A DNA stretch of 64,000 nucleotides from an uncultured Armatimonadetes bacterium (GCA_963717145.1 OY970325.1:4896001-4960000), one strand, 5' to 3'; positions 999-30,727 are shown, counted from the first letter of the stretch. Notes: generated from the sequence alone by a model not told the origin. Numbers and translations: made by a program.

Positions 999-2749
999 CC
1001 GCTATTCTACTGCTGACTATGCTTATCGTTTCCGAATCCCTCGCCCGAGATCTGGAGATATCCCACGCCTATTACCGAGATACGAACGCCAGCCTGCATC
1101 TCTTCCTGGCGAACCACGGCAATGAGCCGGTGTCGATACTGCCACCTGTCGTCGATGGTCAGGACTGCGCCACCCTCGGCAGGGATGGCCTCCACATTAC
1201 AAACGTCCTCTGGTTCCGAAGCCGTCCGAATCCCATTCCGCCCGGTGGGATCGCCGACCTGACGATCACCCTGGCCCTTCCGACCGACAAACCGGTGACC
1301 GTCGAACTGACTACGTCGTCCGGGCAGAAGCTTCGGAAGGTCATCCGATGTGTGCCGGAGCCGATCCGTTTCCAGGCCGTCCGGTTCAGCGCGGACCTGC
1401 GGACCGTGGATGTCTACGTCCGCACGACTGAGGCCCTGCGCCGGATACGTATGGACGGCACCGATGTCGGCAGATCGGGTGAGAGCCTCGACGGCCTCGC
1501 GTTTACTCGAATCAGGCTGAAAGAGCCGCTCGCGCCGAACTCATTCCACGTCTTCGAAGTCGAGGCCGAGGGAGGAGCATCTACCGCGTGTCAGATCCGC
1601 GCGATCCCCGCCGAATTCCTGATCGGCGTCTATGGCAGCCCGAGTCCCGAGGCAATCGCCGATTGGGCGAAGCACGGCCTCAACCATTACCTGTCGTTCG
1701 GCGGAGTCTCGACAGACCTCCTGGATACGTTCGCCGAGCACAAGATCAGCGTCGGGGCGAAATACATCCCCGAGCACCTGGTGGACCGTACCGCCGGCAA
1801 GGTCTCCATCTATGATGAAGAGAAAGCCAAGTCCGCGCTGGATGCCGTCATCGACAAGCCGAGCCTGCTCTACCACCATCTCGTGGACGAGCCGGATGTC
1901 TCCGACTACTACGTGAACCACACGCTCGGCGCGAGCGGGATGGAGCTTATCGCGCGCGACGAGTTCTACGAGCGAAACGATCCCGGGCGCTACACCTTCG
2001 TTCAGCTCGACAACACCTTCCGGCCCAGGAACTACCGAGTCTATGGAGAGAGCGCCGATCTGCTGGCGACGCACAGGTATTCCCTCGGCAGCTATCTCAA
2101 GAGCGAGGCGGGCGAGACGACGGTCAAGCGCCTGCCCTTCTTCGAGGACATGGTCGAGACGTTACGACTTCTTCGCGGTGCTACTGAGCCTAAGCCGTTC
2201 TTCATGGTGCCCCAGTTCTTCAACCTCGGGCCGGGCCGCGCGGGACGTCCGCCGACCATCGAGGAGATGCGCCTCCAGTGCTACACCATGGTCGCAGGCG
2301 GCGCTCGCGGGCTGATTCACTACATATTCTCCGGCTCGACAGGCGGCGGTGAAGGCGGGCGAACTCCGGCTCTCTGGGACGCTATGACCGGCCTCCATCA
2401 GGAGCTTGCCGGCGTCGGCGAGATCGTCGGTTCCGGTACGCCCGCGCCCGCCAATTGGGTGAAATGCAGTTCCGCGAACGTGCTGGCGACTGGGCTGCTC
2501 TGCGGGGACGAGATGGCGGTCGTGTTCATCAATCTCAGTCACCGCTCGTCGCTCCATAGCTTCACCGCGATCTCGGTGCGAGACTTCACGGTAAGAGTGC
2601 GCATCCCGCCGTGGATCGAGGCCTCGGATCTGGAGGTCCGTCTCGCGGACACCGGGGATCCGATTGGGGCCACGATCGAAGGCGACACCTTGAGCTTCAC
2701 GGTCGATGAAGTGACCGATGCTCGATGCGTTCTGCTCTTACGGAAGTGA
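989..2749 (+). CDS. Secreted hypothetical protein, possibly with a glycoside-hydrolase-like TIM barrel
   Basis: ATG at 989 follows a GGAGG RBS. Signal peptide MRLAAILLLTMLIVSESLA; DEP motif and GARGLIHY are typical of uncharacterised GH-like proteins. Confidence 0.55.
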   Translation: MRLAAILLLTMLIVSESLARDLEISHAYYRDTNASLHLFLANHGNEPVSILPPVVDGQDCATLGRDGLHITNVLWFRSRPNPIPPGGIADLTITLALPTDKPVTVELTTSSGQKLRKVIRCVPEPIRFQAVRFSADLRTVDVYVRTTEALRRIRMDGTDVGRSGESLDGLAFTRIRLKEPLAPNSFHVFEVEAEGGASTACQIRAIPAEFLIGVYGSPSPEAIADWAKHGLNHYLSFGGVSTDLLDTFAEHKISVGAKYIPEHLVDRTAGKVSIYDEEKAKSALDAVIDKPSLLYHHLVDEPDVSDYYVNHTLGASGMELIARDEFYERNDPGRYTFVQLDNTFRPRNYRVYGESADLLATHRYSLGSYLKSEAGETTVKRLPFFEDMVETLRLLRGATEPKPFFMVPQFFNLGPGRAGRPPTIEEMRLQCYTMVAGGARGLIHYIFSGSTGGGEGGRTPALWDAMTGLHQELAGVGEIVGSGTPAPANWVKCSSANVLATGLLCGDEMAVVFINLSHRSSLHSFTAISVRDFTVRVRIPPWIEASDLEVRLADTGDPIGATIEGDTLSFTVDEVTDARCVLLLRK

Positions 2750-2755
2750 GGGGCG

Positions 2756-3763
2756 ATGACCGCATCCGTATCGGTCCTCATGCCTGCATACAACGCCGCG
2801 GACACGATCCGTCAGGCCGTGACGAGCCTCCAGCGTCAGACCCTCGCCGACTTCGAGGTCGTCGCGGTGGACGACGGCTCGACCGACGGCACGGGTGACA
2901 TTCTCGATGAGCTGGCGCTCGATGACACGCGCATCAGGCCGGTCCATCTCCCGCACTCGGGGCTGATTGAGGCGCTCAATGCCGGAATCAAGCGGTGCGG
3001 CGCAGACCTCATCGCCCGCATGGACGCCGATGACATATGCCACCCTGAGCGCGTGAGGCTTCAGGTCGAGTACATGCGCGATCATCCTGATGTAAGCGTA
3101 TGCGGGTGCCTGGTCCGCTCGTTTCCCAGGAATGTGATCCGAGAGGGCTTCCTCCGCTACGAGGCGTGGCTGAACTCCCTCACCACGCACGACCAGATCG
3201 CGCGCGACTTCTTCGTCGAGAGCCCGCTCGCCCACCCCAGCGTCATGATGCGGGCGTCCGACCTGCGAGCGATCGGGGGGTACCGGGAGATGGGCTGGCC
3301 GGAGGACTACGACCTCTGGCTGCGGTTCTTCATGGCGGACAAGCGTTTCGGCAAGGTGGCGCGGACTCTCCTCTTCTGGCGCGAAACGCCCGGGCGGCTC
3401 ACGTTCACGGATTCTCGCTACTCGCTCGAGAACTTCGTACGGGCGAAGGCACACTTCCTGGCGATACTGATTCAGGCCAAGAACCGGCCGCTGATCGTCT
3501 GGGGCGCAGGAATGATGGGCCGCCGACTGACGAAGCACCTCGTCCGGGAGGGTATCCAGCCGATCGCGGTGGTTGACATCGACCCGCGCAAGATCGGCCG
3601 GACGATGCGAGGATCTCCGATCATCCCGCCGGAACAGCTTGCAGGTCATCCGAACGCATTCGTCATCGTCGCAGTGGGATCGGAGGGCGCGCGGGAGATC
3701 ATTCGCGCCAGGCTGAACGCGATGGGCCGAATCGAAGTGGAAGATCACCTCTGTGCTGCGTAG
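2756..3763 (+). CDS. Glycosyltransferase family 2
   Basis: VSVLMPAYN, VDDGSTD, RMDADD and EDYDLW motifs; C-terminal Rossmann-like WGAG. Confidence 0.9.
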   Translation: MTASVSVLMPAYNAADTIRQAVTSLQRQTLADFEVVAVDDGSTDGTGDILDELALDDTRIRPVHLPHSGLIEALNAGIKRCGADLIARMDADDICHPERVRLQVEYMRDHPDVSVCGCLVRSFPRNVIREGFLRYEAWLNSLTTHDQIARDFFVESPLAHPSVMMRASDLRAIGGYREMGWPEDYDLWLRFFMADKRFGKVARTLLFWRETPGRLTFTDSRYSLENFVRAKAHFLAILIQAKNRPLIVWGAGMMGRRLTKHLVREGIQPIAVVDIDPRKIGRTMRGSPIIPPEQLAGHPNAFVIVAVGSEGAREIIRARLNAMGRIEVEDHLCAA

Positions 3764-3801
3764 CCCGGGTTGCTCATGATATGTTCAGAGGGCGTGCGCT
3801 C

Positions 3802-3880
3802 TGTCATTCTGAGCGAAGTGACGAATCTGGCGAGAGCATACCTCAAGAACGCCGGATTCTTCACTTCGCTCAGAATGACA
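3802..3880. repeat. REP-like palindromic element
   Basis: Perfect 20-bp inverted repeat TGTCATTCTGAGCGAAGTGA (3802-3821) / TCACTTCGCTCAGAATGACA (3861-3880), extended by GAATC/GATTC, downstream of the operon. Confidence 0.75.
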
Positions 3881-3947
3881 CGGATGATCCGGGCTAGCAG
3901 ACTGAAGAATCGGGACGATTCCTCCGAAATTCCTGGGTGGTAAGGTA

Positions 3948-5309
3948 CGTGTTGCCTCATTTAACTTTGTTACCGAAACGCCATTCGTTGCGTCATTGAT
4001 AATGTTACCAAGTAGTGTGTTCAAGTATGTCAGATCGGCTCTTGATCGCCGCTCAGGGCCGCGCCTTGCTCGCTTTCGATCTGTCTTTGTTCGGCATCCT
4101 GTCAAGCTTTGATGATAGCCTGTGGATGCGTCTTAGTAGCTCCACCGGGTTCGTCGCTCTACGTTCTTTATCGAGGCGATCCTTTGCTTCATCGTCAAGC
4201 CATCCTTCAACACTTATCAGCTTGCGGTACGGCGTCATCGCAGGCTCATAGCGTTTGATCACTTTACTCCCAATCCGCTCCTTTTCTTTAAGACGCATCA
4301 TGGGCTGACAGAAGTTGTGATACGCCACGATCAGCGGATATATCGCCTTTAGTACCGCAAGCTGCTCGTCCGTCTCGAATCGCCGGTAACCTATAAACTG
4401 CCGGACTACGCTCCAGTTCTTCTGCTCTACATGACATTGATCGTTCTTCTTGTAAGGCCGACTGCGCGTAAACGTGATCCTGTGCGCTCGACAGTACTTG
4501 TTCATGTGATGGTTGATGAACTCGCCGCCGTTGTCGGTATCTATGCCTCTGACTGCAAACGGTGCGCTCTTGGACGCGGACTGCACCGCAAGCACGGTTC
4601 CGTGCTCCCCTCGGCCTTTCATTCCATCAAGCGCTACCCATCCGGTCGCTACATCAGTCATAGTCAAAGTATACAGGAACTCTCCGCTCCCGTCACCTCC
4701 GCAATGACCCACCAAGTCCATCTCGAAGAACCCAGGCTCAGCTTCATCCCAGTCGGCAAACGTCCTCACCGGGATCTGAGACCGAAGCAGTGTCCCCGGC
4801 TTTGTTAAGGTCCTCCCTGTTAGCGATAGGGCAGACCGCTCCTTCTTCATCAACCTGTCGATGCTCGACGCGCTGATCGAGTTAAGCAGCCTCTCTTCTT
4901 CTGGTGTAACCGTTATCTCCCCGAATGACTCCAGTATGGGTAGAAACTCAGTCAGAAACGGCTGCAGACGCTTACCGCACGCGTAGAAACTCGCAGCCCA
5001 GAGTGTCTTCAGCTTGTGGGCTATCGGCTCGTATTTCGACTTCCTTGCGCGTCTCACTGGACTCCTCGCTGGTGGAACTCCTTTCGCGAACAGCCTCACC
5101 AGCGACTTCCTGTGGTAACCGGTCAATCCCTGGACTTCACTCAATACCAGCTTCTTCTCCGATTTGGTGGCTTTGCCATATTCTTTGCGTTTGCGCCTCA
5201 CGACTTCTCTTACGGATGCAGTTGTCATCTTCTCCATGCCTCAGTTTCGGTAACATTCTTATCTGAGGCAACGTTTCCGTTTCGGTAACATCGTTCGTGA
5301 AGCAATTCG
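3948..5309 (-). mobile_element. IS with rve/integrase-core DDE transposase (ISNCY/IS481-like), copy 1
   Basis: 1362 bp, essentially identical to 32040-33401. 5-bp TSD AGGTA at 3943-3947 and 5310-5314. Ends carry repeated TTGCCTCA-N7/8-TGTTACCGAA motifs. Confidence 0.9.
4053..5237 (-). CDS. DDE (rve) transposase
   Basis: EMDLVGH, IDTDNGGEF and RSRPYKKNDQCHVEQKN catalytic motifs. Confidence 0.9.
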   Translation of the reverse strand: MEKMTTASVREVVRRKRKEYGKATKSEKKLVLSEVQGLTGYHRKSLVRLFAKGVPPARSPVRRARKSKYEPIAHKLKTLWAASFYACGKRLQPFLTEFLPILESFGEITVTPEEERLLNSISASSIDRLMKKERSALSLTGRTLTKPGTLLRSQIPVRTFADWDEAEPGFFEMDLVGHCGGDGSGEFLYTLTMTDVATGWVALDGMKGRGEHGTVLAVQSASKSAPFAVRGIDTDNGGEFINHHMNKYCRAHRITFTRSRPYKKNDQCHVEQKNWSVVRQFIGYRRFETDEQLAVLKAIYPLIVAYHNFCQPMMRLKEKERIGSKVIKRYEPAMTPYRKLISVEGWLDDEAKDRLDKERRATNPVELLRRIHRLSSKLDRMPNKDRSKASKARP

Positions 5310-5314
5310 AGGTA

Positions 5315-5343
5315 TAGACAACACGCAGGAATCGTGCTATAAT
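5315..5343 (+). promoter_or_regulatory. sigma70 promoter of tRNA-Asn
   Basis: TAGACA-17 bp-TATAAT with extended -10 TG, about 50 bp upstream of the tRNA. Confidence 0.75.
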
Positions 5344-5391
5344 TCCATGGCTGGCAGGGATCAGCATTCATACCTGCCAATCCGTCGATGC

Positions 5392-5464
5392 TCCTCGGTA
5401 GCTCAATCGGCAGAGCACTTGGCTGTTAACCAGGGGGTTCGTGGTTCGAGTCCACGCCGGGGAG
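5392..5464 (+). tRNA. tRNA-Asn (GTT); probable island integration site
   Basis: Cloverleaf with acceptor stem TCCTCGG/CCGGGGA, D arm GCTCAATCGGCAGAGC, anticodon loop CTGTTAA and T loop GTTCGAGTC. CCA is not encoded. Confidence 0.95.
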
Positions 5465-7026
5465 CTCAACCTTTACGTACTGGACAACATCAGCACCATC
5501 TTCCCGCGCATAGAACTCGAATTCGACCGTCTTATCCTTCTGCACCACGGCTTTCTTCAGGATGAAGTCCACCAGGTGTTCCTTCTCTTCCTCCGTGCAG
5601 CCCGGAAACACAGTTGCGAACTCAGCGAAGACCTGCTGAGCCGCCTCTGCATCCACCGAGTCTGGCTTTGCCTCCTTCAGCCTGGTGCGAACGATGTTCA
5701 GTTGAGCCTTGATGGTGGCAAGCACATTCTCCAGTTCCGCAAGGCGCGTCTGGACTGATGTGCTAGCAAGGCCCTGCTCTATTGCACTCATGACGTTGCC
5801 GAGTTTGACCTCGACTTCCTTGCCACGTTGGACGAGGGCTTTCTCCTCCACCTCTATCTGCTCGGTGTTCTCGTCCGTCATGCATGCTTGAGCCGCAGCC
5901 CCCTCTATGAGCGTCCGATCCTCGGCTAACTTAGCGACAGTATCGCAGAACATCTCCTCTATGATGTCGGCATTCATTCGCCGAATATCGCAGTCGATCC
6001 CCCGGTACCTGCCGGTTCGGTAGCACTCATAGTATGGGGTATAGCCTTTCTTGCGGCGGGGATGATTCGTCGATCTTGGCACAAGGCGGCAGCCGCAATC
6101 GCCGCAGTAGATCTTGCCGACTAGATAGTAGCCATGAGGACTATCGATCCGGGGATGCCTGAATCCATCAGCGAACAAGCCCTGAACGAGATCAAAGACA
6201 TCGGCATCCACGATGGCAGGATGCGTACCCTCGACGCGTATCCCGTCATAGTTCAGTTCGCCCAGGTACACGCGGTTTCTCAGGATGTAGTCAACCTTCT
6301 GCCTGGACCATTCGCTGACCACGTCTTTGGTAGCATTCCGAAACTTGGGGCGCTTAGTCTGGGCTCCCAGGGCTATCAACCTGTCTCTCACAGCCCCAAG
6401 GCATTTGGTCTCAAGATAGGTCTCAAACATCAGTCTAACGATTGACGCCTCCCTTTCATTCGGAATGAGCTTCCCATCGAGTACATCATAGCCTAAGGCC
6501 AAATTGCCACCCGGCCATCTTCCCTGTCGGACCATTGCGGTCATCTTGTCTCTCGTTCTCTCTGCGACCATCTCGCGTTCGAGTTCGGCGAAGGTCAGAG
6601 CGATATTCCGCATAGCCCGTCCCATCGCGGTTGAGGTATCGAACTGCTCCTTGACCGAGATGAAGCTGACGCCATACTGCTCGAAGGTACGGTCGAGGTC
6701 AAAGAAGTCCGAAGGGACCTGGTGATCCGGTCCAGCTTGTAGGTCACCACCACGTCGAACTTCCCCATCTGGCAGTCCGCGAGAAGAGACTGTAGTCCGG
6801 GACGGTTTGTGTCCTTTCCGGAGAACCCGCCGTCCTCATAGAAGGCGACGATCTCCCAGTCGGGATGGACCGCTTGGATGTAGTTCCGAACGTAGTCCTT
6901 CTGAGACTCCAACGTGCTGTAGTCGCCCTCACTCTGCTCCACGGTCGAACAACGGCCATACGACACTGCTCGAACAACGCCCTTTCGCTCCATGTTGGCG
7001 CCACGCTTGGGTACTCTCTTGCGCAT
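5426..7026 (-). pseudogene. Large serine recombinase (island integrase), frameshifted near 6710
   Basis: Resolvase domain (YGRCST...YEDGGFSG...KLDRITRS) in ORF 6595-7026. Recombinase, Zn-ribbon (CGDCG) and coiled-coil domains in ORF 5426-6625. Adding one base near CTTCGGAC joins them. Confidence 0.8.
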
Positions 7027-7027
7027 C

Positions 7028-9383
7028 TTATACTGCCTCCCCTTCTTCGGGCCAATCCAGGATGCCGAGCTCTCGCACTCGCTCCAGCGCCGTCCTCAGG
7101 CTGTCGCCGCCAACTATTCGCCATATCCGCATCCTCATATACACCACCGCTTGGACTCCTATGCCCATTAGCTTGGCTGTCTCTTCGCCGCCGTATCCAT
7201 CTACCAGCAATTGCAGGCACTCCATCTGCCGCTTGGTCGGAGGCGTTAGTCCAAGCGCCGTAGCTCGATGGGAGTAGTTGGGCGATGCCAGATGCTGGCA
7301 TGCCTTGAGAAGCATGAGCGGCGATGGGTCATCCGGGGCCAGTAAGCCGAGCGAGGCGGCCTTGGCTATTGCAGCTTCGCTACAGTGTGCTCCGAGCTTC
7401 ACCCGGATCCGGGCACGCCTGCCCGACACCGTCGATTCCGGAACACACAGTTCTTCCGCTATCTCAGGATCGGTCTTGCCGGCAGCCATCGCCTTGAGCA
7501 CCAGCATCTCCTGTGACTTGAGTGCACAGGCGTCCTCCTTTGGCTTGCCCCAGCGACCATCGAGTGGAAGGCAGTGCGCCCAGTCGGACAAGTACGGCTT
7601 GATCTTCTCAATGGCTTCCTCCAGTGATGTAACACCCAAGCCAACTATCGCATCCCTGCGATGCCTCTTTACGGTGCCAACCTTGACATTCCATCTGGCC
7701 GCGATCTGCGCGTTACTGTATCCATCGGCGGCGAGAGCGAGATAGGCCAACTGCCTGCGCCCCACGGGCGGCTTCTTGATGCCGTTCCTGGCCCGCTCCC
7801 ATTGCGAGTGCACCGGAAGCGTGAAATGGATCTCGTCGATGAACCTGATCTTAAGCTTGATCAGTGTCACGCTGTCCATGCGGCGGACTCGGATATGTTC
7901 TATCAGCATCTCGTAGACGGCACGGCGTTCTTTGGGAAGCATGGCCGACCACATAGTGGGGAAGTCGCGAAGCAGTTGTACGGCTCGGGACTGCTGGGCC
8001 TCCAGTGTCTCCAACCTGACGTGCACATTCTCCAACTCGGACAGGCGCGTGGTGATGAACGTCTTGCGGTCCGATACGGCCCTATCGTAGGCTGTCAGGG
8101 TGTCTAGCGATACCTCGTCCCTGGCAAACGCCCTGGAAAGCTCCTCCTTCTTGGAGTCAATCCTGGTAAGCTCAGACCGGAGACTCTCGGCTTCTGAATC
8201 GTGATCCTGGGGCAGCCGTTCCAGGATATCCTTTGCTACGGTCTCCGCTTTGTCCAGGACGAGCGGGTCTTGAGCGATCTTCATGATCTCGTGGTCGATT
8301 CGAGGCTCCAAGAACCCCGCAGGTATGTAAGGTCTCGACGCACATGGTATGCCGTGTCGCCGTGTATCCTCGCATCTGTACCCTCTGTAAGGGCCGTTGG
8401 GATGGACGATCCTCATTCGACCGCCGGATTCGTCGCAATACGTCAGCCGCGCGAGAGGGGCCTCCGCGCAAGACTCCGTTCTCGGCCCGAAATGCTTCCT
8501 TTTCTTCATCTCCTCCTGAATCTGGTAGTACACCGCTTCGTCGTAGATGCGGTTCTCGTGGTGTCTACCTGCTATGCATTTGCCGCCATGGCGGATCAAC
8601 CCCGCATTGAGAGGATTGCGTAGTATGCTCCGGACTACGTTCGGATGCCATCTTGGGCCACCCTTTGGGGCGGGGACTCCCTGCTGCTCCAATTCCCGGC
8701 AGATGTCAAGAAGCCCCAGCCCCCTCAGGTATGAATTGGCTATCTGGCGGATCACAGGTGTCTCTCGTTCATCAGGAGCGATACCCGGTCGGCGACTGGA
8801 GTTATTCATCATCCACCTCCCTTGCAGTTCGCCGCCAGCCGAAGCCGACCTGGCCGGTCGGATAGCCGTCCTCACGCCTTCTTGCCATCGCGGCTTTGAC
8901 ATTCTCTGCCGTGATATCCGAGAAGAGCTCGGCTGCCAATATGAGAATACCGGCGGCGAAACGACCCATCGAACGGCTTGTATCGATGCTATCCTGAACT
9001 GATATCAGCGTGACGTCGTACTTCAGGATATAGTCCTGTAAGAACTCATGCCAGACCCTGGCGTTGCGGCTCAACCTGTCGAGTCGCCAGAAGATGACTA
9101 CCGATACCTCCCCGTCGGCTATTGCCTGGACGAGCGCCGATAGACCCGGCCTGACGTTCTTTGCTGGCGATCCCGGCTTGGCGAAGCCGAGCTTTCCGCT
9201 GTAACCCTCATCAGCGAATACCTTGGCAGTGTAGTTGCCGGGCCCGAAGACGCGGTCCAGGTATTCACGGCATACTCGCTCTTGTTGCTCAAGAGAATAT
9301 CCGAAGTCCGCCTGTTCCGATGTGCTTACGCGGATTGGTATGCCAACCGAGGGTTGGCTACTTTCGTGTGCCAAAGACTTCAA
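7028..9383 (-). pseudogene. Large serine recombinase fused to three LuxR-type HTH domains, frameshifted near 8810-8850
   Basis: Resolvase domain (IRVST, DEGYSG, WRLDRLSR) in ORF 8802-9383. Recombinase domain, coiled coil and three LuxR-like repeats in ORF 7028-8902. Confidence 0.75.
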
Positions 9384-9861
9384 TTCCGGTTACTCCTTTC
9401 AGGTATTCGTGTGCACTTCGAATCACTCGCTGTTCGGCTGCAAAGATCAGGGAGCAGCCATGATTCTCGATGACATTCACAAGAAACTCGAGGCACAGAG
9501 CAAAGCGTCGAGCAATTCTATCCAAGCGGTGCACTATGACCACCTGGATCTCCCCCGTGGCCACGGCGGCAGCGAGGGCCGAAAGCCCCGGGCGGGCGTT
9601 GTCTTGGCACCGTTCAGGAACGGTAGAGCCTCGGTTTCCACCGAACCCGTCGTCGGTGTACACCTTGACCTGATAGCCTCCGGGACCGTACGCTTGGTCC
9701 AGGAAGTCGAGGCACACTCGCTCTTGGTCGACCAGAGAGCTTGCGTCGCCCAAACTCGCTGTTCGCCAGTACGGGCCCACACTGTCCAGGTTTTCGCTTT
9801 CAGAATTTTCCATCAGAACCTTCTCCTTCATAATACTACTTGGCGGCTTGTTTGTCAACAC
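9358..9861 (-). CDS. Stand-alone resolvase-domain protein with degenerate catalytic motif
   Basis: Clear paralog of the 8802-9383 N-terminus (QERVC..LD...GPG.Y..KV..D.G..G; RPGLSAL; HRLDRIAR). YWRTAS replaces the Y.R.S motif. Confidence 0.7.
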   Translation of the reverse strand: MLTNKPPSSIMKEKVLMENSESENLDSVGPYWRTASLGDASSLVDQERVCLDFLDQAYGPGGYQVKVYTDDGFGGNRGSTVPERCQDNARPGLSALAAAVATGEIQVVIVHRLDRIARRFALCLEFLVNVIENHGCSLIFAAEQRVIRSAHEYLKGVTGIEVFGTRK

Positions 9862-10056
9862 TTGACTATATATTACAACAAACGCCCGCTGTTTGATTCA
9901 AGAATGTGGCTTTACTGAGTGCATGAAGCCTGCTGTAATGATTACTGCCGAGGTTCGATGACCCTTGGCTTGTCTCGCTGTCTAATGAGTCTGACAGCGA
10001 CCTGTGCTAGCAGTCTCGCCAAGCGTGCGTACAGCTCCGACTGACTATCCGGTACG

Positions 10057-10218
10057 CTACTGCTCACTGCTCTCACCCCCCTCCTGTGCCTTCCGGGCCT
10101 CCAGGCGTTTCTTAGCCCGAAGGAGAATCTCCAGAGCACGGGCGTAGCGCTCGACGGCGTCTGGTGTCGGAACATACTTGATTGTTGCGGTGTATCCGCC
10201 TCGCGGCTTTCTGCCCAT
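10057..10218 (-). CDS. Small basic hypothetical protein upstream of the recombinase operon
   Basis: 53 aa with a GGGGTC-type RBS, co-oriented with the recombinases. Confidence 0.4.
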   Translation of the reverse strand: MGRKPRGGYTATIKYVPTPDAVERYARALEILLRAKKRLEARKAQEGGESSEQ

Positions 10219-10344
10219 GATGACCCCACCGCCGGCTGACAAACAAAAACCGCCGGCCACTACCCAAAGAATAGCGACCGGCGGATGGGGTGCCTCGACA
10301 ACGCTAGTGTGCACGCTAGCGTTGCCGATTTTTTGTTATAGGGT

Positions 10345-11355
10345 CTACAGGTTCAGCGATTCCCAGTCCCTCCTCAGTGTTCTCTCGTCTCGGCGGAAGA
10401 TGCCAGCATCGATCTCTTCTGCGGGATATCGATCGAGAAGGCTTTGGACCATCTCCACTATCAGACTCGGCGCATGCATCCGTCGGGCGACGTGCTGAAC
10501 TCGCACAGCATGATTCATCTGTGACTCGCCAGACGCCATTGCCTGTCGTATCTCTGAAGCGAGGCTTGCCCAATAGCTGAACTCATTGATCACTTGGATT
10601 ACGGAGTATCCGGCATCCCGCAGTTGTCGTAGCATCTCACGTCTGTGCTGCAGAAGCTCCGTAGTCTTCGATCCGCGAAACGTACGCGGGAGCTTGCTAA
10701 GTTGGATACCGTACTTAGCCCTGAGCCCGGATAGTTCACCAGTAACTTCCCGTATCGGCCGATTTCCAAATGGCGAGGTCGTGTTGACGTCGTTGGAGAG
10801 TATGGTAGCTACGCGGTTGATGTCTCCGTACCTGTATAGAGGTGTCCAGCCGTATTCCGGCAGGACAGGTGTAGGCAGCCGTTGGCGTTCCCTTTCGGTG
10901 GTTGTGCGCCAAACTAGCATCCCGAACCAGTACTCCCCGAGATCGGGCGGGGGATGAAGGCGCAGGCTGCCATCGTCGGCCATTGCATCATATGCCGCCT
11001 CCCAACTCCGGTCAATGGCTGTGAACTCCCTGTCCATACGCTCCGGATCGTAGCCGAAGACATCGCTGGCGGCTAGTCTGATGCGGCATATCTGATCGCG
11101 CTTGATCCAGCAGACCGGATGCACTTCGCCCGTCTTGGCCAAACGGGCCAGAATATGGAACGGATAGTTCAGAAACCAGATCCAGTCTTCATCTACCATC
11201 TCTCTCAGGTGCGTGGGAACACTAGCCTTAGTGAGCTGGATCTGATACTCCACGTATTGGGCTGCAGGATGACGATCTCCAAGTTCCTTGCTCAGTTGCT
11301 GTGCGAAATCCTGGGCCATTATCAGCTCATGGGGTCTGTCAGGCATGGGTGTCAT
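10345..11355 (-). CDS. Hypothetical protein
   Basis: 336-aa ORF with no family recognised. Confidence 0.55.
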   Translation of the reverse strand: MTPMPDRPHELIMAQDFAQQLSKELGDRHPAAQYVEYQIQLTKASVPTHLREMVDEDWIWFLNYPFHILARLAKTGEVHPVCWIKRDQICRIRLAASDVFGYDPERMDREFTAIDRSWEAAYDAMADDGSLRLHPPPDLGEYWFGMLVWRTTTERERQRLPTPVLPEYGWTPLYRYGDINRVATILSNDVNTTSPFGNRPIREVTGELSGLRAKYGIQLSKLPRTFRGSKTTELLQHRREMLRQLRDAGYSVIQVINEFSYWASLASEIRQAMASGESQMNHAVRVQHVARRMHAPSLIVEMVQSLLDRYPAEEIDAGIFRRDERTLRRDWESLNL

Positions 11356-11516
11356 CGTTTTACATCCTGGTGCTAAGCATCACCAATCTAGGGGTCTACT
11401 TTCCAGTCCCAATGCCTGCGGTGGCAGATACCTTCCAGCGCCGAGCTGTGAGCCAAGCGGTGGTTGATCGACCACGGGCTGCTACAGCATAGTAGAACAG
11501 GAAGGTGGTAGCGCTC

Positions 11517-11807
11517 TCATACGTGACGCTCAGATTGGGCCGCTGCCCCCTCAAGTAGCCAGCATGTAGAGCATTCCAGGGCGTCGGCTAGAGCCAGTAC
11601 TTCCAGATCAGAAACGAGCCTTGATCCGTTTTCGATGCGTGAGATATCCTGCCAAGCCGGGTTCCACATTCCGTTTGTGGCACGGGCGACTCGGGCACAG
11701 AGTTCATCCTGGACAATCCCAAGGTGATGACGGCGGTCCCTTACACGAGGGCCCACCTGGTTCATCTTCCCTTCACTGGTTCTAAGTCGAGCACCGCCAC
11801 GAGGCAT
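11517..11807 (-). CDS. XRE-family HTH transcriptional regulator
   Basis: VGPRVRDRR...QDELCARV...ISRIENGSR...LADAL...WLL pattern. Confidence 0.8.
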   Translation of the reverse strand: MPRGGARLRTSEGKMNQVGPRVRDRRHHLGIVQDELCARVARATNGMWNPAWQDISRIENGSRLVSDLEVLALADALECSTCWLLEGAAAQSERHV

Positions 11808-11813
11808 CTCTAG

Positions 11814-13401
11814 CAGCCTGTCTGAGAATTCCCCGCTATGTGGGTGAGTTTCCCATCTGCGGGGTCGCGCTGGCTGCTGTTCGATAGTGTTTTTCGCCGG
11901 ATTTCCGGCGAGGGTCTGTAAAGACCCCTTGTACCTTGATAATCAGCCTGATCCAGGTCATATATCTACGTATCGAAGATCGATTTCCGGTCGCCGTATC
12001 GGTATAGCTTCAGCATGTTGTGCCCAAGACACGCAAGCGTCCACTCCGACTTCGCTTTCGCAAGGCCTCGGAGTAGGAAGCCTCGGAAGTTCCGTGCGCT
12101 CTTGATCTGGCCGAACACCGGCTCTACCGTCTCCTTCCGCCTCCCGTAGATCTTTCGGCCAAGAGGAGTCAAGAGCTTTGCTCTCTGGCGATCTGCGGCG
12201 GATTGCTTTGCCGGATCAAGGCAGGAAGGCGCCGTCGGCTCTTTGCCATGACGTTGTCTGTCAGGCGGTATATAAGCGTCGATCCCTTGCTGCTCGACCA
12301 TCTCTATGTTGTCGCTGCTGAAGTATCCGGCATCGGCGGATAGTTCTTCCGGTTTCTTTCCGGTGTTCTCCTTGATTGCCTCGATCATGTCACTAAGATG
12401 CGGTGAGTCCGCTGCCTGGTTCGTGAGATCACACGCCACTACAATCTGATGATCTGCGTCTACCGCAGCTTGTCCGTTGTATGCCTGCACGAAGGCTTTC
12501 TTTGCGTCCTTCATTATCCGGCTTTCCGGGTCTGTGAAGTTCCGCTGTGCCTTCCCTTCCGGCTCTGTCTTTACGGGCCCCGGCTCTCTGCCGCGAGGCT
12601 TCTTCCCGGATGCTTCCTGCTCCGCCTTCTCTTGGGCTCGCATCGCTTCTTCGGCTGATGCTCGCTCTTTGGCCTCGCGCTCCAGCGCTTCTTTTGCTTC
12701 CCTGATCTTGGCGAGCCGCTTCTCTCTGGTTGCGAGTTCCTCCGGGAGTTCGTCTCCTCGGCGGTCAAGACCATATTCCGCGTCTTCCTGGTCGTCCACA
12801 GAAAGACCCTTCGCAAGGAGCGCCTCGATCTCAGCCTGAAGCTCTTTTTCTTTCTCGACCATCCGAGAGTAGCTCATGGCGGAGTGCTTGCTTGCGTTGG
12901 CAAGCAGCTTTGTTCCGTCTATGGCTATGTGTTTCATCGACACAAGCCCGGCGCTTGCGCATAGCCTGAGCACTTGCACAAACAGGTCCGCAAGGGACTT
13001 GAGATGCCTCTTCCTGAACTCGCTTATCGTGCGGAAGTCGGGATGATTTCCTGCCGCAAGCACCCGGAAGGCTACATCTTCATACGTGGCCAGGGAGAGC
13101 TTTCGAGATGAATACACTCCCCGGCACAAACCGTAGAATATGATCTTTGTAAGCATTGCCGGATGGAACGGCGGCGCTCCTCGGGCCTCTTTCTCGTATG
13201 AGGCGTATATCGCGGAAAGGTCGAGTCCGTCTACGACATCGCTCACAAAGTATGCGAGATGTCCTTGGGGAAGCCACTCCGAGATCGACGGCGGCATCAA
13301 GAATATCTGGTCGGGTTGATAAGGAAGGTATGGCTTGCTCATACCAGTATTTTACTATATATCTGGCACCTTGTGCCAGAGGTTATTTCGTGGACAGGCT
13401 G
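11814..13401 (-). mobile_element. IS1182-family element
   Basis: Inverted repeats CAGCCTGTC/GACAGGCTG, flanked by CTAG on both sides (11810-11813 and 13402-13405). Confidence 0.85.
11966..13342 (-). CDS. IS1182-family transposase
   Basis: PDFRTISEFRKR, IDGTKLLANAS, ADAGY and RKETVEPVFGQIK motifs. Confidence 0.92.
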   Translation of the reverse strand: MSKPYLPYQPDQIFLMPPSISEWLPQGHLAYFVSDVVDGLDLSAIYASYEKEARGAPPFHPAMLTKIIFYGLCRGVYSSRKLSLATYEDVAFRVLAAGNHPDFRTISEFRKRHLKSLADLFVQVLRLCASAGLVSMKHIAIDGTKLLANASKHSAMSYSRMVEKEKELQAEIEALLAKGLSVDDQEDAEYGLDRRGDELPEELATREKRLAKIREAKEALEREAKERASAEEAMRAQEKAEQEASGKKPRGREPGPVKTEPEGKAQRNFTDPESRIMKDAKKAFVQAYNGQAAVDADHQIVVACDLTNQAADSPHLSDMIEAIKENTGKKPEELSADAGYFSSDNIEMVEQQGIDAYIPPDRQRHGKEPTAPSCLDPAKQSAADRQRAKLLTPLGRKIYGRRKETVEPVFGQIKSARNFRGFLLRGLAKAKSEWTLACLGHNMLKLYRYGDRKSIFDT

Positions 13402-15799
13402 CTAGGGCATCGAGAACGAATACACAGGGGGCGGTGCCATCATGGCGAAGAATATCACAAGTGGCAATGCCGAAGAGGGGGCGCAGGATACTCAGGTCCT
13501 CCTCAGGTACATTGTGCATGATCTCATCAATATCAACGCCTTTGTCCACAAAGTCAGCGAAATTGGAGAACGCACCCTGTATTGCCGCTCCAGGCACGTA
13601 GAATACTGTCTGGAGTTTCTGGTCGATTGCAGGGTATACCGCCGTTGACTTTCCGAAACCAAACTCCCCCAGGAGAACTGTGATTCGTCTTCTCTTGTCA
13701 CCAAAGAGCACGGATGCAGGATCAGCTACGAAGGAATCGCCAATCTCAATCCTCTCAAGCTTATTGGGACCAACGACTACCAGGCATTCGCGCAATGGAA
13801 CCTCGGAGATCGGTTCGTATCCTGGAAAGGCCTCGATACCTGGCCTTTTGCCGGGAGACGAAGCCTGTTCCTGCAGGAATGCCTTTACCTGTTGCTTGGC
13901 GGTCTCAAATATGGTCCGCGGTATGATATCACGATACCACACCTCAGCAGTCTCAGCTTTTCCAGACTCCATGAGCTGACTCATCAGGCGGACGAGCTCG
14001 TCACGAATGTCCGCGCTATGTACATTCCGATTCAGTACAAGGACGTACCTCCTGGCCCGGAAGGGGCTCTTCATGAAGGAGTTGACAGACTTCCTGCAGT
14101 TGGCGACCTGTCTGATGCCTACCTCCTGGTCTGTCACTTTGAAGCCCTTGCACTGTATGACCAGAGGGAACGGCTGACTATCCGACCAGGATATGTAGTC
14201 AACTCCAGAGTTATCCAGGGGTGGAACTCCTCAGAGTGGGTAGAGCACGTCTCAGGCAGCCCTTGCCGCGTGCTCAATCCGAGCCAGTTCGCCACTCAGG
14301 AGGGCGGTTCTCACCGCGAGCACTGCATCTGCCCCATCCTTTGTCCACCGCATCCCGGCTTGCTTTAGCCTCTGGCTCACTATCACCTTGCACGCTGATT
14401 CCACCGGACCGCTGCCTATCATCATCCCCTTGGCCCTGTATGCCGGGTAGTTCATGTACTTCCGGTACTTCCTGAAGTCCCATCTCCAGCCGAAGTGCTT
14501 CTTGTTCCTCTTTGCCCCGAGCCTTGCGCCGCTTCATGGCTCTGAGTAGACTCCCAGGTCCCTTCTCCTTGAGCTTCCGGCAGTGCTCATTTGCCCAGCG
14601 CTTCCCTTTGGGACTTCCCTCTCCATAGAGCGCCCGCGCCAAGTTGTGTATGTGCTCGCAGGCATGCCAGTAGTCGATGATCTTGATGCTCTCCGGCAGA
14701 TGATCCCTGACCTCTCTCCATATCCAATCTGCTCCGTCAGCGATGACTATCCGCTCTTTTGCAGTACCGTAGCCGGCTTGCATTGCCCAGGTGTATACCC
14801 GTCTCCCGAACTCTTCGCTCTTCTCTTGTGCCGCTATGTAGCGCGAGTTCGTGACTGTGTCCGTGTCTTTGCCTGCAGCCGGAACGCCTTCGTATACCAC
14901 CATAGCCTTGATGTCATGCCACTGGCCATCGGTGTGCGCTTTGGCCGCGTCTATGCCAATGTAGAGCCTCTGTGGCGTCGCCTCGCAGGAGACCTCTTCA
15001 CCTGTGTCTACCGCAGAGATGATCGCTTCCTGCTCCTCTCGGCGGAGGCATTCCCCAACATCCCGGACTATCTCTTCTTCGCTGCTCTCTTCGATCGCAA
15101 TACCCGTGGTTCGCTCGATCAGCCTTGCGGCTGCTTCATATGGAAGCGCGGCGCAGATCGAGGCCGTGAGTTCTTTCACGCTGGCGGTCCATACTCTCTC
15201 GGACAGCCCCTGCTCGCGGTCCCATGGAATGTAACCCTGCCCGCAGTGGTCGCAGCGGTAATATGCCCGGCTTACCTCTGCATCTCCGTGCAACGTCCGC
15301 ACAAAGCGCTTTCGGTATCCCTTGAACCTGGCCAGTCTGCCGCATTCGCACTCTATCCGAACGCCTCTGTAGGTGGGCTTTCCGCTCATCTTTCCGGCAA
15401 CCTCACTCATCATTGCGCCGGCGATCTGGCGCGCCAGGATCTGAATACGCTCCTCGGCTGACCCCAAGTCCGCGCAATCGATGTAGCTGCGGGCAAAGTC
15501 GCGAGCGGCCTCAAGGAGGGAGTCTGTGTGCAAAAGTGTAAGCCTTCTCTGGGAGTCTCCTTTCGGAATGTTTGTCCTTCAACAAACCGTTACCGACTAT
15601 TACAGGAGACTCCTTCCTTACTTGCTACCCACTCAACGCGAATGCACCCGTTATCCAGAGTAGCTAGATCGGTGCACTCAACGATTCCAGGAAAGGCCAA
15701 GCGTAGGTAAGGTCCGACACCTCGCTGGAAATGATGTCCCTCAAGAGAACTCAAAACATTTCCGATCTGTATGATCTGAGCTTTTGCCTGCCAAGTCAT
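13402..15799 (-). pseudogene. Mrr-like PD-(D/E)xK nuclease fused to NACHT/STAND NTPase, interrupted by one IS and truncated by IS1182
   Basis: Removing IS 14219-15649 and one TSD restores the frame ...LDNSGVDYI...VIQCKGF...GEFGFGKST...VFVLDAL, which stops at the IS1182 junction. Confidence 0.7.
14219..15649 (-). mobile_element. Mutator-like IS (ISKra4/ISLre2 type), copy 1, with frameshifted transposase
   Basis: Ends GGGTGCATTC.../...TCCACCC; 9-bp TSD GTTATCCAG at 14210-14218 and 15650-15658. It is 2 bp shorter than copies 2 and 3, which splits the ORF near 14478. Confidence 0.9.
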
Positions 15800-17884: not shown

Positions 17885-19361
17885 GTAAGAGTTCACGATC
17901 ATTGATAGTCTGAGCAGGAACCTTGGAGCGGACTGTCGAATGGCAGGTTGTGAACGATCTCGGCAACCTATCAAGAGAAGAACTGATCGGCATCGTCCTG
18001 GAGCAGCACCAGGCCGTCCTGGAATTGCGTGAAGGCGTGGACACCCTCACCGAACGCGTCCGAGCGCTTGAGAAGGAGAATGAAGAACTCCGGTCCAAGC
18101 TCGGTGGCGGCGGCAGGACGATACCTGCCTTTGTGAAGGCAAACCGGCCCGAGCGCAAGAAGAAGGATCGCAAGAAGCGGCAGAAGTCGTTTGCACGGCT
18201 GAGGGAGACTCCGACTGAGATCGTGGATCACGCGCTCGACACCTGTCCCGACTGCGGAAGGAAGCTCTCGGGCGGCACGGTGCATCACAGCCGGCAGGTG
18301 ATCGAGATACCGGTGATGCCGGTCAGGATCATCGAGCACCTGGTGATCGGACGGTACTGCGGAGTCTGCCACAAGATACACGTGCCGAAGCTCGACCTCT
18401 CCGAAGAGGTGGTCGGGACACACCGGGTGGGCATCCGGCTGATGAGCCTGGTGAGCTATCTCCACACTGTGTGCAGAATGCCGGTTGAGCGTGTGCAGAA
18501 GCTTCTGGAGTCGCTCTACGGTCTGCATCTCGGGCTCGGAGAGATCGCGAAGATACTCCAGAAGGTGGCCTCCATGGGCAAGCCGGAGGTAGAGAAACTT
18601 CTGCAAGCAGTCAGAGGAAGCCCTACGGTGAACGCGGATGAGACCGGCTGGCGGGAAGATGGGAAGAACGGATACATCTGGAGCTTCACGACGCCACGCG
18701 TGCGCTACTTCGTCCGAAACAAGAGTCGGAGCGGCCAGGTCGCAAAAGACGTGCTGGGAGAGGACTACGAGGGTGTAGTCGTAAGCGACTTCTACTGCGG
18801 CTACAACGTGCTGCTCGGTTGGCATCAGCGGTGTTGGGTGCACTACCTGCGGGACTTGCGAACGCTCGTCGAGGCGAACCCTGACAAGAGAGGGGTAGCA
18901 GTCTGGGCCGGCAAGGTCAAGGCCGTTTACAGGCGCGCGAAGGCATTTTCGGGCGATGATTCGAAGGCCCGGCAGAAGCGGCGAATCGCATTCGAGGACG
19001 AGTTGCTTCGACTCGCCAGACCATATGTGAAGCGGGATGTTCCGCAGAGGATACTCGCTGAGCGGATCGAGAGATTCCTGCCGGAGCTGTTTGTCTTCGT
19101 AGAATGTCCGGAAGTACCAAGCGAGAACAATGCGGCCGAGCGAGCGATCCGGCCTGCGGTAACAGCTCGCAAGATCAGCGGCGGCACACGATCGGCCAAG
19201 GGATCTGAGACCCGCATGGCGCTGATGAGTCTATTCGGAACCTGGCACTTGCGTGGTGAAGATGCGATGGAGTCATGTTGGCGAATGCTCGCGGGCGTTC
19301 CTCAGACACTCGCGACCGATCCAGCCTGACAACTTCACTATCAACGATCGTGAACTCTTAT
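17885..19361 (+). mobile_element. IS66-family single-ORF element (ISBst12-like); transposase 17923-19329
   Basis: Inverted repeats GTAAGAGTTCACGATC/GATCGTGAACTCTTA(T). Leucine zipper, CPDCG, ADETGW, QRCWVH and ENNAAERAIRP motifs. Confidence 0.9.
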
Positions 19362-19369: not shown

Positions 19370-20802
19370 GGGTGCATTCGCGTTGAGTGGGTAGCAAGTA
19401 AGGAAGGAGTCTCCTGTAATAGTCGGTAATGGTTTGTTGAAGGACAAACATTCCGAAAGGAGACTCCCAGAGAATGCTTACACTTTTGCACACAGACTCC
19501 CTCCTTCAGGCCGCTCGCGACTTTGCGCGCAGCTACATCGATTGCACGGACTTAGGGTCAGCCGAGGAGCGTATTCAGATCCTGGCGCGTCAGATTGCCG
19601 GCGCAATGATGAGTGAGGTTGCCGCCAAGATGAGCGGAAAGCCCACCTACAAGGGTGTTGGGATAGAATGCGAATGCGGCAGACTGGCCAGGTTCAAGGG
19701 ATACCGGAAACGCTTCATTCGGACTTTGCACGGAGACATAGAGGTCGAGAGGTCATACTACCGTTGCGACCATTGCAGGCGGGGCTACATTCCATGGGAC
19801 CGCGAGCAGGGGCTGTCCGAGAGAGTATGGACCGCCAGAGTGAAGGAACTCACCGCCTCGATCTGCGCCGCGCTTCCATATGAAGCAGCCGCAAGGCTGA
19901 TCGAGCGAACCACGGGTATTGCGATCGAAGAGAGCAGCGAAGAAGAGATAGTCCGGGATGTTGGGGAATGCCTCCGCCGAGAGGAGCAGGAAGCGATCAT
20001 CTCTGTGGTAGACACAGGTGAAGAGGTCTCCTGCGAGGCGACGCCACAGAGGCTCTACATTGGCATAGACGCGGCCAAAGCGCACACCGATGGCCAGTGG
20101 CATGACATCAAGACCATGGTGGTATACGAAGGCGTTCCGGCTGCAGGCAAAGACACGGATACCGTCACCAACTCGCGCTACATAGCGGCGCAAGAGACGA
20201 GCGACGAGTTCGGGAGACGGGTATACACCAGAGCACTGCAAGCCGGCTATGACGGGGCAAAAGAGCGTATAGTGATCGCCGACGGCGCAGACTGGATATG
20301 GAGAGAGGTCAGGAATCATCTGCCGGAGAGCATCAAGATCATCGACTACTGGCATGCCTGTGAGCACATATACGGCTTGGCGCGGACACTCTACGGAGAG
20401 GGGAATCCCAAAGGGAAGCGCTGGGCAAACGAACACTGCCGGAAGCTTAAAGAGAAGGGGCCGGGGAGTCTGCTTAGAGCCATGAAGCGGCGCAGAGCAC
20501 GAAACGATTCTGAGAGGGAAGCGCTTCGGATCGAGACAGGCTACTTCAGAAAGTACCGCAAGTACATGAACTACCCGGCATACAGGGCCAAGGGGATGAT
20601 GATAGGCAGCGGTCCGGTGGAAGCGGCGTGCAAGGTGATAGTAGGCCAGAGGTTAAAGCAAGCCGGGATGCGATGGACGAAGGACGGCGCAGATGCAGTG
20701 CTCGCGGTGAGAACTGCCCTCCTAAGCGGCGAACTGGCTCGGATCGAGCACGCAGCACGTGCCGCCTGAGCCGTGCTCTACCCACTCTGAGGAATTCCAC
20801 CC
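19370..20802 (+). mobile_element. Mutator-like IS (ISKra4/ISLre2 type), copy 2; transposase 19474-20769
   Basis: 1433 bp with the same ends as copy 1. GIDA, ADGADWIW, IDYWHACEH and IGSGPVEAACK motifs. Confidence 0.9.
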
Positions 20803-22417: not shown

Positions 22418-22438
22418 GACAAGAGGTGGACACAAACC

Positions 22439-22717
22439 ATGAATTACAACGAAAAGATTGCTGCCGTCGAAGACACAATTGCCAACATCTTCACGGAATT
22501 TCTGCGCCTATCCGAGCGGGAAGATGCCAGTCAGGTACCTCATCTTGATACATACAGCCTGAACTCCATAGACGCGCTTGAGGTGCTGCTGCGCGTCGAG
22601 AAGGAATTCGGCATCGAGATTGCAGATGAGGATCTCAATGCCGATCTACTTACGAATCAGCATAGCCTGGCAGCCTACGTTGTTCGCTGCCTGGCCGAAA
22701 CACAACGCAACGAGTAG
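22439..22717 (+). CDS. Acyl carrier protein
   Basis: LNSIDALEVLLRVEKEFGIEIADEDL signature. Confidence 0.85.
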   Translation: MNYNEKIAAVEDTIANIFTEFLRLSEREDASQVPHLDTYSLNSIDALEVLLRVEKEFGIEIADEDLNADLLTNQHSLAAYVVRCLAETQRNE

Positions 22718-22765
22718 CTCCGGTATGCTGGAATCTGCTGATGGTATTCCAGCGGGGAATGCACG

Positions 22766-28249: not shown

Positions 28250-28472
28250 ACAGGTATGGCAAGCCTGCATTGTGCTCTCGCCGGTCCCTCCGGCACAAAG
28301 GCTAGGTTGCCCTCAGATATCGACTCCGTAGGCAGAAGGTCAGTTTCCTGGTCATCCACCGGCGGTTCCAATCGCTCCAGCTCGGCCTCAACTGAGATAG
28401 CGGGTTCGATGAGCCGGCCGAGATAGGTGCCAGTGTCGATCTCGCCCCAATGCCATCTGATACCAGTGCTTA

Positions 28473-30392: not shown

Positions 30393-30727
30393 TCACCTCA
30401 CCGCCGGACAGCTTGCACATCCTGCGGTGCGGGTGGTGCTACTGTCCTATCTGCACAGATGATCTCACACGTATCGGGCCGTGAAACTCCGCTGGGGAGT
30501 TTGAGCAACCTGGATCTCCCCGAGCCTCTTGGCACGAGGATTACGGTGCCCTCTTCCTATATCCCTTGATCAGACCGAGCCCTCTCCACGATGCTATCGA
30601 TTGGATAAGTGCTTGTGCGCCCGCGCCATTCTCCTGTAGTGCTTGAAGACGGAGACGATATAACCGAGTGGCCGCGAGTCGTAGATACTTGTCGAGGCCT
30701 ATGCTGTCGGTTCATGAATGATCCTTT

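Follow-up and report, generated by a model that had tools for sequence, protein, structure and literature searches.

What do the serine recombinase genes crowded beside a tRNA gene in an uncultured Armatimonadetes bacterium encode, and which of them could form a working enzyme? The stretch analysed here (GCA_963717145.1 OY970325.1:4896001-4960000), referred to as the window, comprises 64,000 nucleotides (nt), on which all positions are counted; its genome is G000 in the genome comparisons. At 5426-9861, a packed and co-oriented cluster on the minus strand carries genes A, B1, B2 and C in 5'-to-3' order, with five recombinase-related open reading frames (ORFs). The initial annotation had recognised this cluster correctly but had counted three genes, describing the second as a single large serine recombinase (LSR) fused to three LuxR-type helix-turn-helix (HTH) domains. 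Instead, B1 and B2 occupy different frames and B2 has no Resolvase domain; the catalytic domain and the DNA-binding body of B are thus encoded separately, unlike the single polypeptide that characterises an LSR. This naturally and stably split enzyme is the most unusual feature of the locus, and that annotation had missed it.

B1 (8802..9383, minus strand) encodes a protein of 193 amino acids (aa), consisting of a stand-alone, full Resolvase catalytic domain (PF00239, 88.3 bits) and the E-helix region. It carries the motif IRVSTSEQ, and the catalytic residues R18, S20, R78, R103 and R106 are all present, providing the nucleophilic serine and the conserved arginines of an LSR catalytic domain. 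In line with this, the catalytic domain of TP901-1 integrase (3bvp) matches B1 with an E-value of 1.8e-11. The protein ends 10 residues past its FGW motif. Sixteen further clusters of stand-alone B1 homologs (186-215 aa, 58-86% identity, PF00239 only, contigs of at most 22 kb) all terminate 7-11 residues after (Y/F)GW, and the five catalytic residues are invariant across the 17 B1-type sequences.

B2 (7028..8812, minus strand; 593 aa, starting at ATG 8812 or 8809) supplies what B1 lacks. Pfam matches comprise Recombinase (PF07508, 53.5 bits), Zn_ribbon_recom (PF13408, 27.7 bits) and GerE/Sigma70_r4, and the same scan found no Resolvase domain. The AlphaFold2 model, computed from an 8-row alignment with a mean predicted local distance difference test score (pLDDT) of 75.4, contains long coiled-coil helices at residues 203-229 and 235-281, completing the Recombinase, Zn ribbon and coiled-coil body typical of LSRs. 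Specifically, Foldseek relates approximately the first 360 residues to the LSR structures LI/A118-type 4kis, SPbeta 9dxh, PhiC31 9ibl and Bxb1 9iu2, and the tail to LuxR-type DNA-binding domains, while residues 185-478 of SPbeta SprA align to the B2 profile. The three LuxR-type repeats that had been proposed are all there. Scanned singly against GerE (PF00196, gathering cut-off 23.5 bits), HTH 1 (residues 351-413; 7571..7759) scores 34.0 bits and HTH 2 (residues 432-486; 7352..7516) 36.1 bits, both exceeding the cut-off, and profile comparison matches these two repeats to RhlR, VraR, GerE and NarL. HTH 3 (residues 526-581; 7067..7234) reaches 18.5 bits, under the cut-off, although all three repeats, which lie on the minus strand with B2, are modelled as four-helix bundles and the block of the third has a pLDDT of 84-90. 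The initial annotation would have abandoned its reading had the repeats not matched GerE or LuxR models; two of the three do so above the cut-off.

The separation of B1 from B2 recurs in relatives. A search with the HTH region gave seven B2 homologs (45-79% identity, 460-675 aa), all with Recombinase and GerE domains, none with PF00239 by Pfam, and the six complete ones share the start residue of B2. At the junction in the window (8802..8822, minus strand), a GGGAGG box, the B2 start ATGATG and the B1 stop TAA overlap. Junction DNA was compared between the window and the metagenome loci L002, L003, L004 and L008, whose B2 proteins are 43-82% identical. In all five junctions, a GGAGG box stands 6 nt ahead of an ATG, the B1 stop lies 8-14 nt past the A of the B2 ATG (overlaps of 8, 8, 8, 11 and 14 nt), and the B2 frame is +1 relative to that of B1. 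By these junctions, B1 and B2 are translationally coupled cistrons. Comparison of the window with L002 gives a ratio of nonsynonymous to synonymous substitution rates (dN/dS) of 0.12 in B1 and 0.20 in B2. Additionally, a soil-metagenome contig, 96% identical and independently assembled, covers 8224-8894 without a gap. Sequencing error as the source of the split is ruled out by the conserved junctions, the gap-free contig and the stand-alone B1 homologs. Judged from these comparisons, the split of B is conserved rather than an error, and both halves are under purifying selection.

Where the split arose is indicated by fused relatives. A B2 profile search of 1.84 billion representatives matched 27,800 proteins at E <= 0.001, of which 159 reached E <= 1e-30, most of the latter being 670-770 aa long. 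The top matches are split forms of 583-617 aa. Behind them rank two fused proteins that have a Resolvase head and all three HTHs, P0010 (815 aa) and P0011 (784 aa), both matching B2 end to end from their residue ~191-195, and then many fused two-HTH proteins of 670-770 aa, which match B2 at ~5-490 from their own residue ~190. In the fused proteins, YGW and R(R/P)G(I/V) flank a variable loop, and it is this loop that corresponds to the break. Across the 35 rows of a tree (P0001-P0007, P0009 and, among P0010-P0040, the members of 560 aa or more; P0008 and shorter fragments excluded), the eight split forms fall on one side of a branch with a Shimodaira-Hasegawa-like approximate likelihood ratio test (SH-aLRT) support of 98, and their sister is P0010 plus P0011 (99). 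The catalytic-domain fusion that had been annotated for the window is therefore absent from this clade and belongs to its sister group. On this tree, the B gene was split once within a family of LuxR-bearing LSRs, and the split has since been maintained. The family itself is broad, and its fused two-HTH forms (~690 aa) are many and diverse: Resolvase, Recombinase, Zn_ribbon and GerE occur together in 6 of 6 same-phylum genome copies scanned, which are 26-38% identical to the window's parts, and pairwise identity among 16 members is 22-45%. Such recurrent and divergent fused forms imply that the LuxR-bearing LSR architecture is a large and old family and not a one-off. The triple-LuxR architecture is real and recurrent, and the one-off read-through that the initial annotation had named as its undoing does not apply, Recombinase, Zn ribbon and HTH recurring together in many relatives.

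Among the contigs of the named genomes, a scan with the B2 alignment found no relatives, and a six-sequence alignment of fused forms found only three loci, one of them in a Chthonomonadales metagenome-assembled genome. Separately, leads from the ESM Atlas (<0.9) include large clusters of 53-253 members, mostly from Bacillota, of 300-375 aa with Recombinase and Zn ribbon and little or no Resolvase. These clusters hint that detached LSR bodies may be commoner than the split clade, and many of them could be gene fragments.

Gene C abuts the downstream side of B2 and reaches into the tRNA gene. The tRNA-Asn(GTT) gene (5392..5465, plus strand; ARAGORN), the sole Asn tRNA gene of the genome, marks the island insertion point, and the last 40 nt of C (5426-5465) are antisense to its 3' half and encode the tail ELPGVDSNHEPPG. 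Two relatives resemble this arrangement. In L006, the C homolog (53% identical) overlaps tRNA-Glu(CTC) with the same geometry, and the homology between the window and L006 elements extends to a few bases from the tRNA 3' end. In genome G007, a C-like gene (35-40% identical) overlaps tRNA-Asn and has the tail LPGVDSNHEPDG; no B-like gene is found in the ~4.7 kb of contig upstream of it. Most characterised LSRs target protein-coding genes, not tRNA genes. Because the C genes overlap tRNA-Asn here and tRNA-Glu or tRNA-Asn in relatives, C is probably, on this geometry, the integrase of a genomic island of ~84 kb. A sample of 400 genomes of the phylum gave 29 further C-like loci, of which six have a tRNA or transfer-messenger RNA (tmRNA) gene within ~1.5 kb, four of them convergent (Asn in two, tmRNA in two). 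As a separate observation, the C-like genes of L064 (G085:C101) and L073 (G298:C328) converge on tmRNA from ~0.7 kb away, which recalls the Dehalococcoides ssrA islands; these loci fall into different families within the class to which the window's genome belongs.

C is not intact in the window. Resolvase, Recombinase and Zn ribbon are all detected, but not in one open frame in this genome, since the frame changes at ~6705-6711. All coordinates being on the minus strand, the 5' part C1 (6710..7026) holds the N-terminal half of Resolvase with GRCSTVEQ (PF00239, E 2.1e-20), and the 3' part C2 (5426..6709) holds the end of Resolvase, Recombinase, Zn ribbon (PF07508, PF13408) and a coiled coil; the frameshift site itself lies at 6709..6711, where the frame switches between ...DRITRSLR and DFFDL.... 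As ORFs, the two parts run from 7026 to 6595 (Resolvase N-half) and from 6625 to 5426 (Resolvase end, Recombinase, Zn ribbon). The conventional LSR that had been assigned to the third gene therefore stands as regards its domains, but not as an intact gene. By contrast with the window, C is intact and directly follows B2 in 3 of 3 related loci that have it (L003, L006 and L007, in L003 as far as the contig limit). Additionally, the frame stays open in contigs of 93-97% identity from two studies, owing to one additional base at 6709 (X1) or 6711 (X2); a further data set, X3, is identical to X2. By these comparisons, the break in C is confined to this genome or to its assembly. With C broken by this one-base frameshift, the island has probably lost its mobility here.

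The island is delimited by comparison with same-family relatives, which share a glycosyltransferase gene upstream of tRNA-Asn. In G085, tRNA-Asn is followed 1.35 kb downstream by genes matching G000 from 4986186 onward, and this resumption of synteny implies that the insertion in G000 measures ~84 kb and extends past the window. Inside the window, the island has a G+C content of 0.52-0.59 against 0.62, and it is rich in transposase genes (rve, the IS4-like DDE_Tnp_1, IS66 and UPF0236) beside nonribosomal peptide synthetase (NRPS), carbamoyltransferase, glycosyltransferase and radical-SAM genes. That the cluster serves as the integration and excision module of a mobile element, as the initial annotation had supposed, is supported by its position next to tRNA-Asn at the edge of this insertion.

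Based on these findings, we propose that the locus is a recombination module at the tRNA-proximal edge of an ~84 kb island riddled with insertion sequences (ISs), sitting at the 3' end of tRNA-Asn. C, of a lineage whose genes read into the 3' half of a convergent tRNA gene, would recombine the element end with the tRNA 3' half. B would have been split in the variable loop that separates (Y/F)GW from RPGI, the motif with which the recombinase domain opens, and translational coupling would yield B1 and B2 in about equal amounts. B1 and B2 may then associate non-covalently where the loop is broken and so restore a recombinase, now of two subunits. The HTH array may add accessory DNA contacts or (auto)regulate the module, and the small ORFs X and Y upstream of A, described below, are candidate directionality or regulatory factors. 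The observed parts by themselves, that is the ORF structure, conservation, single origin, purifying selection, tRNA overlap and island, are held with high confidence. On the sequences at hand, it is evenly balanced whether the two halves of B come together as an active enzyme, and a complex prediction for B1 with B2 residues 1-340, each with its own alignment, scored 0.01 against a mark of 0.32 and counts neither way on binding. To the explanation as a whole, with C as the integrase, a split B that reassembles and a decaying A, we lean with modest confidence.

Several observations weigh against this proposal. B is damaged in two related loci: in L006, B2 is cut to residues ~233 onward and B1 is missing, and in L007, B is interrupted by a 544-aa ORF; the module is thus dispensable for retaining the island in place. 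After B2 in L002, a tyrosine recombinase (PF00589) takes the place of C, which implies that the pairing of B with C is not obligatory. Within B2, HTH 3 falls below the GerE cut-off, and the first CxxC of the Zn ribbon is CDES in the window's subclade (P0001-P0003), replacing one zinc ligand by serine. No convincing repeat family that could serve as DNA sites for B is found in 5300-12000. As regards the island, no repeat of at least 20 nt of the tRNA 3' end occurs anywhere in the genome, and only chance-level short matches to the tRNA 3' end occur at the far island end, near the synteny break. The frameshift in C could be an assembly indel error, the assembly being a single contig, in a context (cttcggac) that contains no long homopolymer. 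Finally, in a search of sequencing runs, no run contained more than 0.08 of the stretch's words, and the stretch appears in no listed RNA run.

A bolder extension, which we consider rather unlikely, is that B1 is an exchangeable head that docks non-covalently on B2 and maybe also on C, so that the supply or partitioning of heads would switch recombination, with the LuxR array acting in arm-site-like accessory recognition. If true, control by head supply would be a mode not yet described for LSRs. More in keeping with known systems, but quite unlikely in our judgement, B1 could be a free catalytic subunit for C, comparable to what is proposed for DsiA/DsiB and CcrA/CcrB, leaving B2 as a DNA-binding regulator or an architectural protein, perhaps an autoregulator or a directionality factor that works by way of its coiled coil and HTHs. 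Consistent with such a division of labour, the available text on 16 Dehalococcoides islands places a catalytic-only serine recombinase beside the attL-proximal LSR (PMC3146451). C follows B2 in four loci (the window, L003, L006 and L007), L006 retains only the coiled-coil and HTH part of B2 beside an intact C, and LuxR-type domains are typical of transcription regulators. On the other hand, B1 and B2 derive from one fused gene and are coupled in 5 of 5 junctions, and the L002 pair accompanies a tyrosine recombinase, without C. Moreover, a second resolvase-domain ORF, tried and rejected as a general companion of C, occurs at only 1 of the 29 C-like loci, and the C-like gene of G007 sits at its tRNA with no B-like gene in the upstream contig. 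A fused relative in G122 is itself preceded by a tyrosine recombinase; together with L002, this implies that the second site-specific recombinase accompanying B-type genes can be of either class.

The constant +1 register of the junctions raises the question of whether B is made as one polypeptide after all, through programmed +1 frameshifting or transcriptional slippage, with B1 as a by-product or regulator in the manner of IS3 OrfA/OrfAB. The known +1 frameshift site of prfB has a Shine-Dalgarno-like box upstream of the stop codon, and a box in that position is found here too; furthermore, the +1 frame of B2 is kept in all five junctions despite overlaps of differing length. Nevertheless, the five junctions reveal no slippery codon that is conserved among them, and the B2 frame of L002 is open just ~17 nt ahead of the B1 stop. 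The 6 nt from GGAGG to ATG are the spacing of an initiation site, whereas those from GGAGG to the stop vary between 10 and 17 nt across the junctions, and the ATG is kept in every one. A frameshifted single product is therefore improbable, and two separately initiated halves remain the preferred reading.

Another improbable view, of equally low standing, holds that the whole cluster is a dead relic in this genome and that its conservation reflects recent common descent. The frameshift in C fits this view, as do the rve, IS4-like, IS66 and UPF0236 elements that riddle the island, the failure of searches with the tRNA 3' end to find a far-end attachment (att) remnant, and the CDES variant of the Zn ribbon. 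Recent descent of a dead gene, however, does not accord with identities of 45-79% (B2) and 58-86% (B1) within the split clade, invariant catalytic residues and low dN/dS, and B1 and B2 are both uninterrupted here.

Gene A (9358..9861, minus strand; 167 aa), the first of the cluster, is a paralog of B1 that consists of the catalytic domain only (PF00239, E 1.8e-10), lacks most of the E-helix region and shares 47% identity with B1 over 98 aa and 34% with the head of C. The resolvase-only gene with a degenerate YWRTAS motif had been correctly noted: where B1 reads IRVSTS, alanine aligns to S20, and A therefore lacks the nucleophilic serine of (Y)xRxS on which an active serine recombinase depends. 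A is open only in the window. The L002 copy has an in-frame stop, the L004 copy consists of the last ~49 codons with the 5' two-thirds missing, and the soil contig departs from the window 24 codons ahead of the A stop. Its dN/dS against L002 of 0.34 indicates, for this one comparison, weaker constraint and not clear neutrality, and the RTAS motif is common to the window and L002. A sigma-70-like promoter (TTGACA-17-TATTAT, 11 of 12 matches; 9830..9858, minus strand) stands ahead of A; it falls within the annotated 5' end of A, and L002 has the TTGACAA box as well. Translation of A, if it occurs, would probably begin at ATG 9813, which AAGGAG precedes. By its alignment with these copies, A reads as a decaying duplicate of B1 for which some residual role is possible, rather than as the inactive resolvase partner that the initial annotation had made of it. 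The heteromeric integration and excision machine of A, B and C suggested there, with serine-less A as an inactive directionality partner, is very improbable: the co-oriented, packed genes, the promoter-like site before A, the absence of a strong internal terminator, a dN/dS under neutral and the shared RTAS speak for it, but A is broken in L002 and L004, diverges in the soil contig and lacks most of the E-helix, a tyrosine recombinase replaces C in L002, and, in the available text on the three-recombinase gin element, only GirC and the small factor GirX were needed (PMC5595907).

The conserved module appears to extend beyond the recombinase genes. Homology between the window and L002 runs from just downstream of a terminator-like hairpin (10250..10284, minus strand) to the end of B2, and we take this hairpin as the upstream limit of the module. 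Between the hairpin and A lie the small overlapping ORFs X (10218-10057, 53 aa) and Y (10067-9942, 41 aa), which together occupy 9942..10218 on the minus strand and are common to L002; 39 of the 53 residues of X are identical there. Neither has a family match in Pfam or PHROG. A 34-bp near-perfect, loopless palindrome (10295-10328) is located immediately upstream, in the sense of the minus strand, of the hairpin. Considered as a site for B, it was rejected because L002 has no conserved counterpart and because its position is outside the conserved module, on the upstream side. An upstream 336-aa ORF has only a sub-threshold match of 15.6 bits and no convincing Pfam or PHROG family. In the tRNA-Glu element of L006, the region 1832-7465 upstream of the truncated B2 encodes a PLD/SNF2-helicase protein of 1118 aa and another protein, of 563 aa, that bears an excisionase-like MerR/HTH_17 motif at its C-terminus.

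The remaining island DNA in the window contains repeated mobile genes and cargo. A 394-aa rve transposase gene occurs twice with identical Pfam scores (4053-5237, minus; 32112-33293, plus), one copy being inserted between the conserved glycosyltransferase gene and tRNA-Asn. Two UPF0236 (PF06782) ORFs of 431 aa each (19474-20769 and 50245-51540, plus strand) share the same nested antisense ORF and are probably copies of one IS; a third UPF0236 ORF (14274-15533, minus strand) has 419 aa. Transposases of the IS66 family are likewise duplicated (17923-19329 and 33450-34847). The cargo at 21302-31981 comprises a BtrH_N/DUF4872 protein, a carbamoyltransferase, a single-module NRPS (C-A-T, 1049 aa) and a homolog of BpsA_C-like polyamine synthase, and that at 35089-39000 a second BtrH_N protein, a glycosyltransferase and a B12-binding radical-SAM enzyme.

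If functional, the conserved split would show where an LSR tolerates a break and would pose the question of how a non-covalently held head performs subunit rotation. Split integrases of conditional activity are at present engineered with inteins, and the locus would supply a ready-made design for them. The subfamily of LuxR-bearing LSRs, which numbers 159 representatives or more at E <= 1e-30, may point to a new means by which LSRs gain added DNA specificity or regulation. Additionally, the C lineage would extend tRNA-targeting LSR integrases beyond the tmRNA case of Dehalococcoides.

Comparison with known systems places these features in context. With the canonical LSRs (4kis, 9dxh, 9ibl, 9iu2 and 3bvp), B shares the catalytic domain, the E-helix, the recombinase domain and the Zn ribbon with its embedded coiled coil; those enzymes, however, are single polypeptides, where B is two, and have no LuxR-type HTH array past the Zn ribbon and coiled coil. 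In a literature search that left subscription journals and supplements outside, no LSR with LuxR/GerE domains was found, published multi-recombinase modules included, and within the same bounds no natural split serine recombinase was found, only the engineered split-intein PhiC31 serine integrase (bioRxiv 10.1101/540872). As described there in the text available, that integrase is likewise made as two polypeptides that must join for activity, but it is joined by protein trans-splicing, whereas the locus studied here has no intein and would rely on a non-covalent complex.

Modules with several serine recombinases have been described for CcrA/CcrB of SCCmec, for the recombinase triplets of Streptococcus integrative and conjugative elements (PMC4701971) and for girA-girB-girC of the Bacillus cereus gin element, in which only GirC and the 6.5 kDa GirX are required (PMC5595907). 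By the available portions of these accounts, they resemble the present cluster in carrying co-oriented serine recombinases at an element edge, and the outermost recombinase and small factor of gin find a parallel in C and X/Y. They differ in that their members are full-length LSR paralogs, as opposed to a split B and a serine-less remnant A; three full-length LSR paralogs in tandem are not found here, LSR bodies being confined to C and the split B. As for the tRNA target, LSRs are reported, in the part of the study available, on 27 of 937 tRNA-associated Prochlorococcus tycheposons (bioRxiv 10.1101/2020.12.28.424599).

The closest likeness is to the Dehalococcoides ssrA islands, for which the available text describes DsiB (~540 aa) at attL and the catalytic-only DsiA (~200 aa) on the reverse strand beside the tmRNA gene, and proposes a CcrA/CcrB-like partnership of the two without experiments (McMurdie et al. 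2011, PMC3146451). Both modules lie on the reverse strand and adjoin attL at the 3' end of a gene for a small stable RNA, both place the LSR nearest the target (DsiB; C here), followed by a co-oriented catalytic-only protein (DsiA; B1 or A here), and both islands carry cargo and no transfer genes of their own. The geometry of an LSR on the opposite strand at the 3' end of an RNA gene holds for C in the window and also in L006 and G007. The likeness of C to DsiB and of B1 to DsiA follows the published description, not sequence. Compared with that description, the RecF-, ParB- and Mom-like module genes are not seen here, the far-end direct repeat (20 bp) is not found, and the target is a tRNA (Asn; Glu in a relative) instead of tmRNA. 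Above all, the catalytic-only B1 is a detached LSR head whose body, B2, is encoded by the next cistron.

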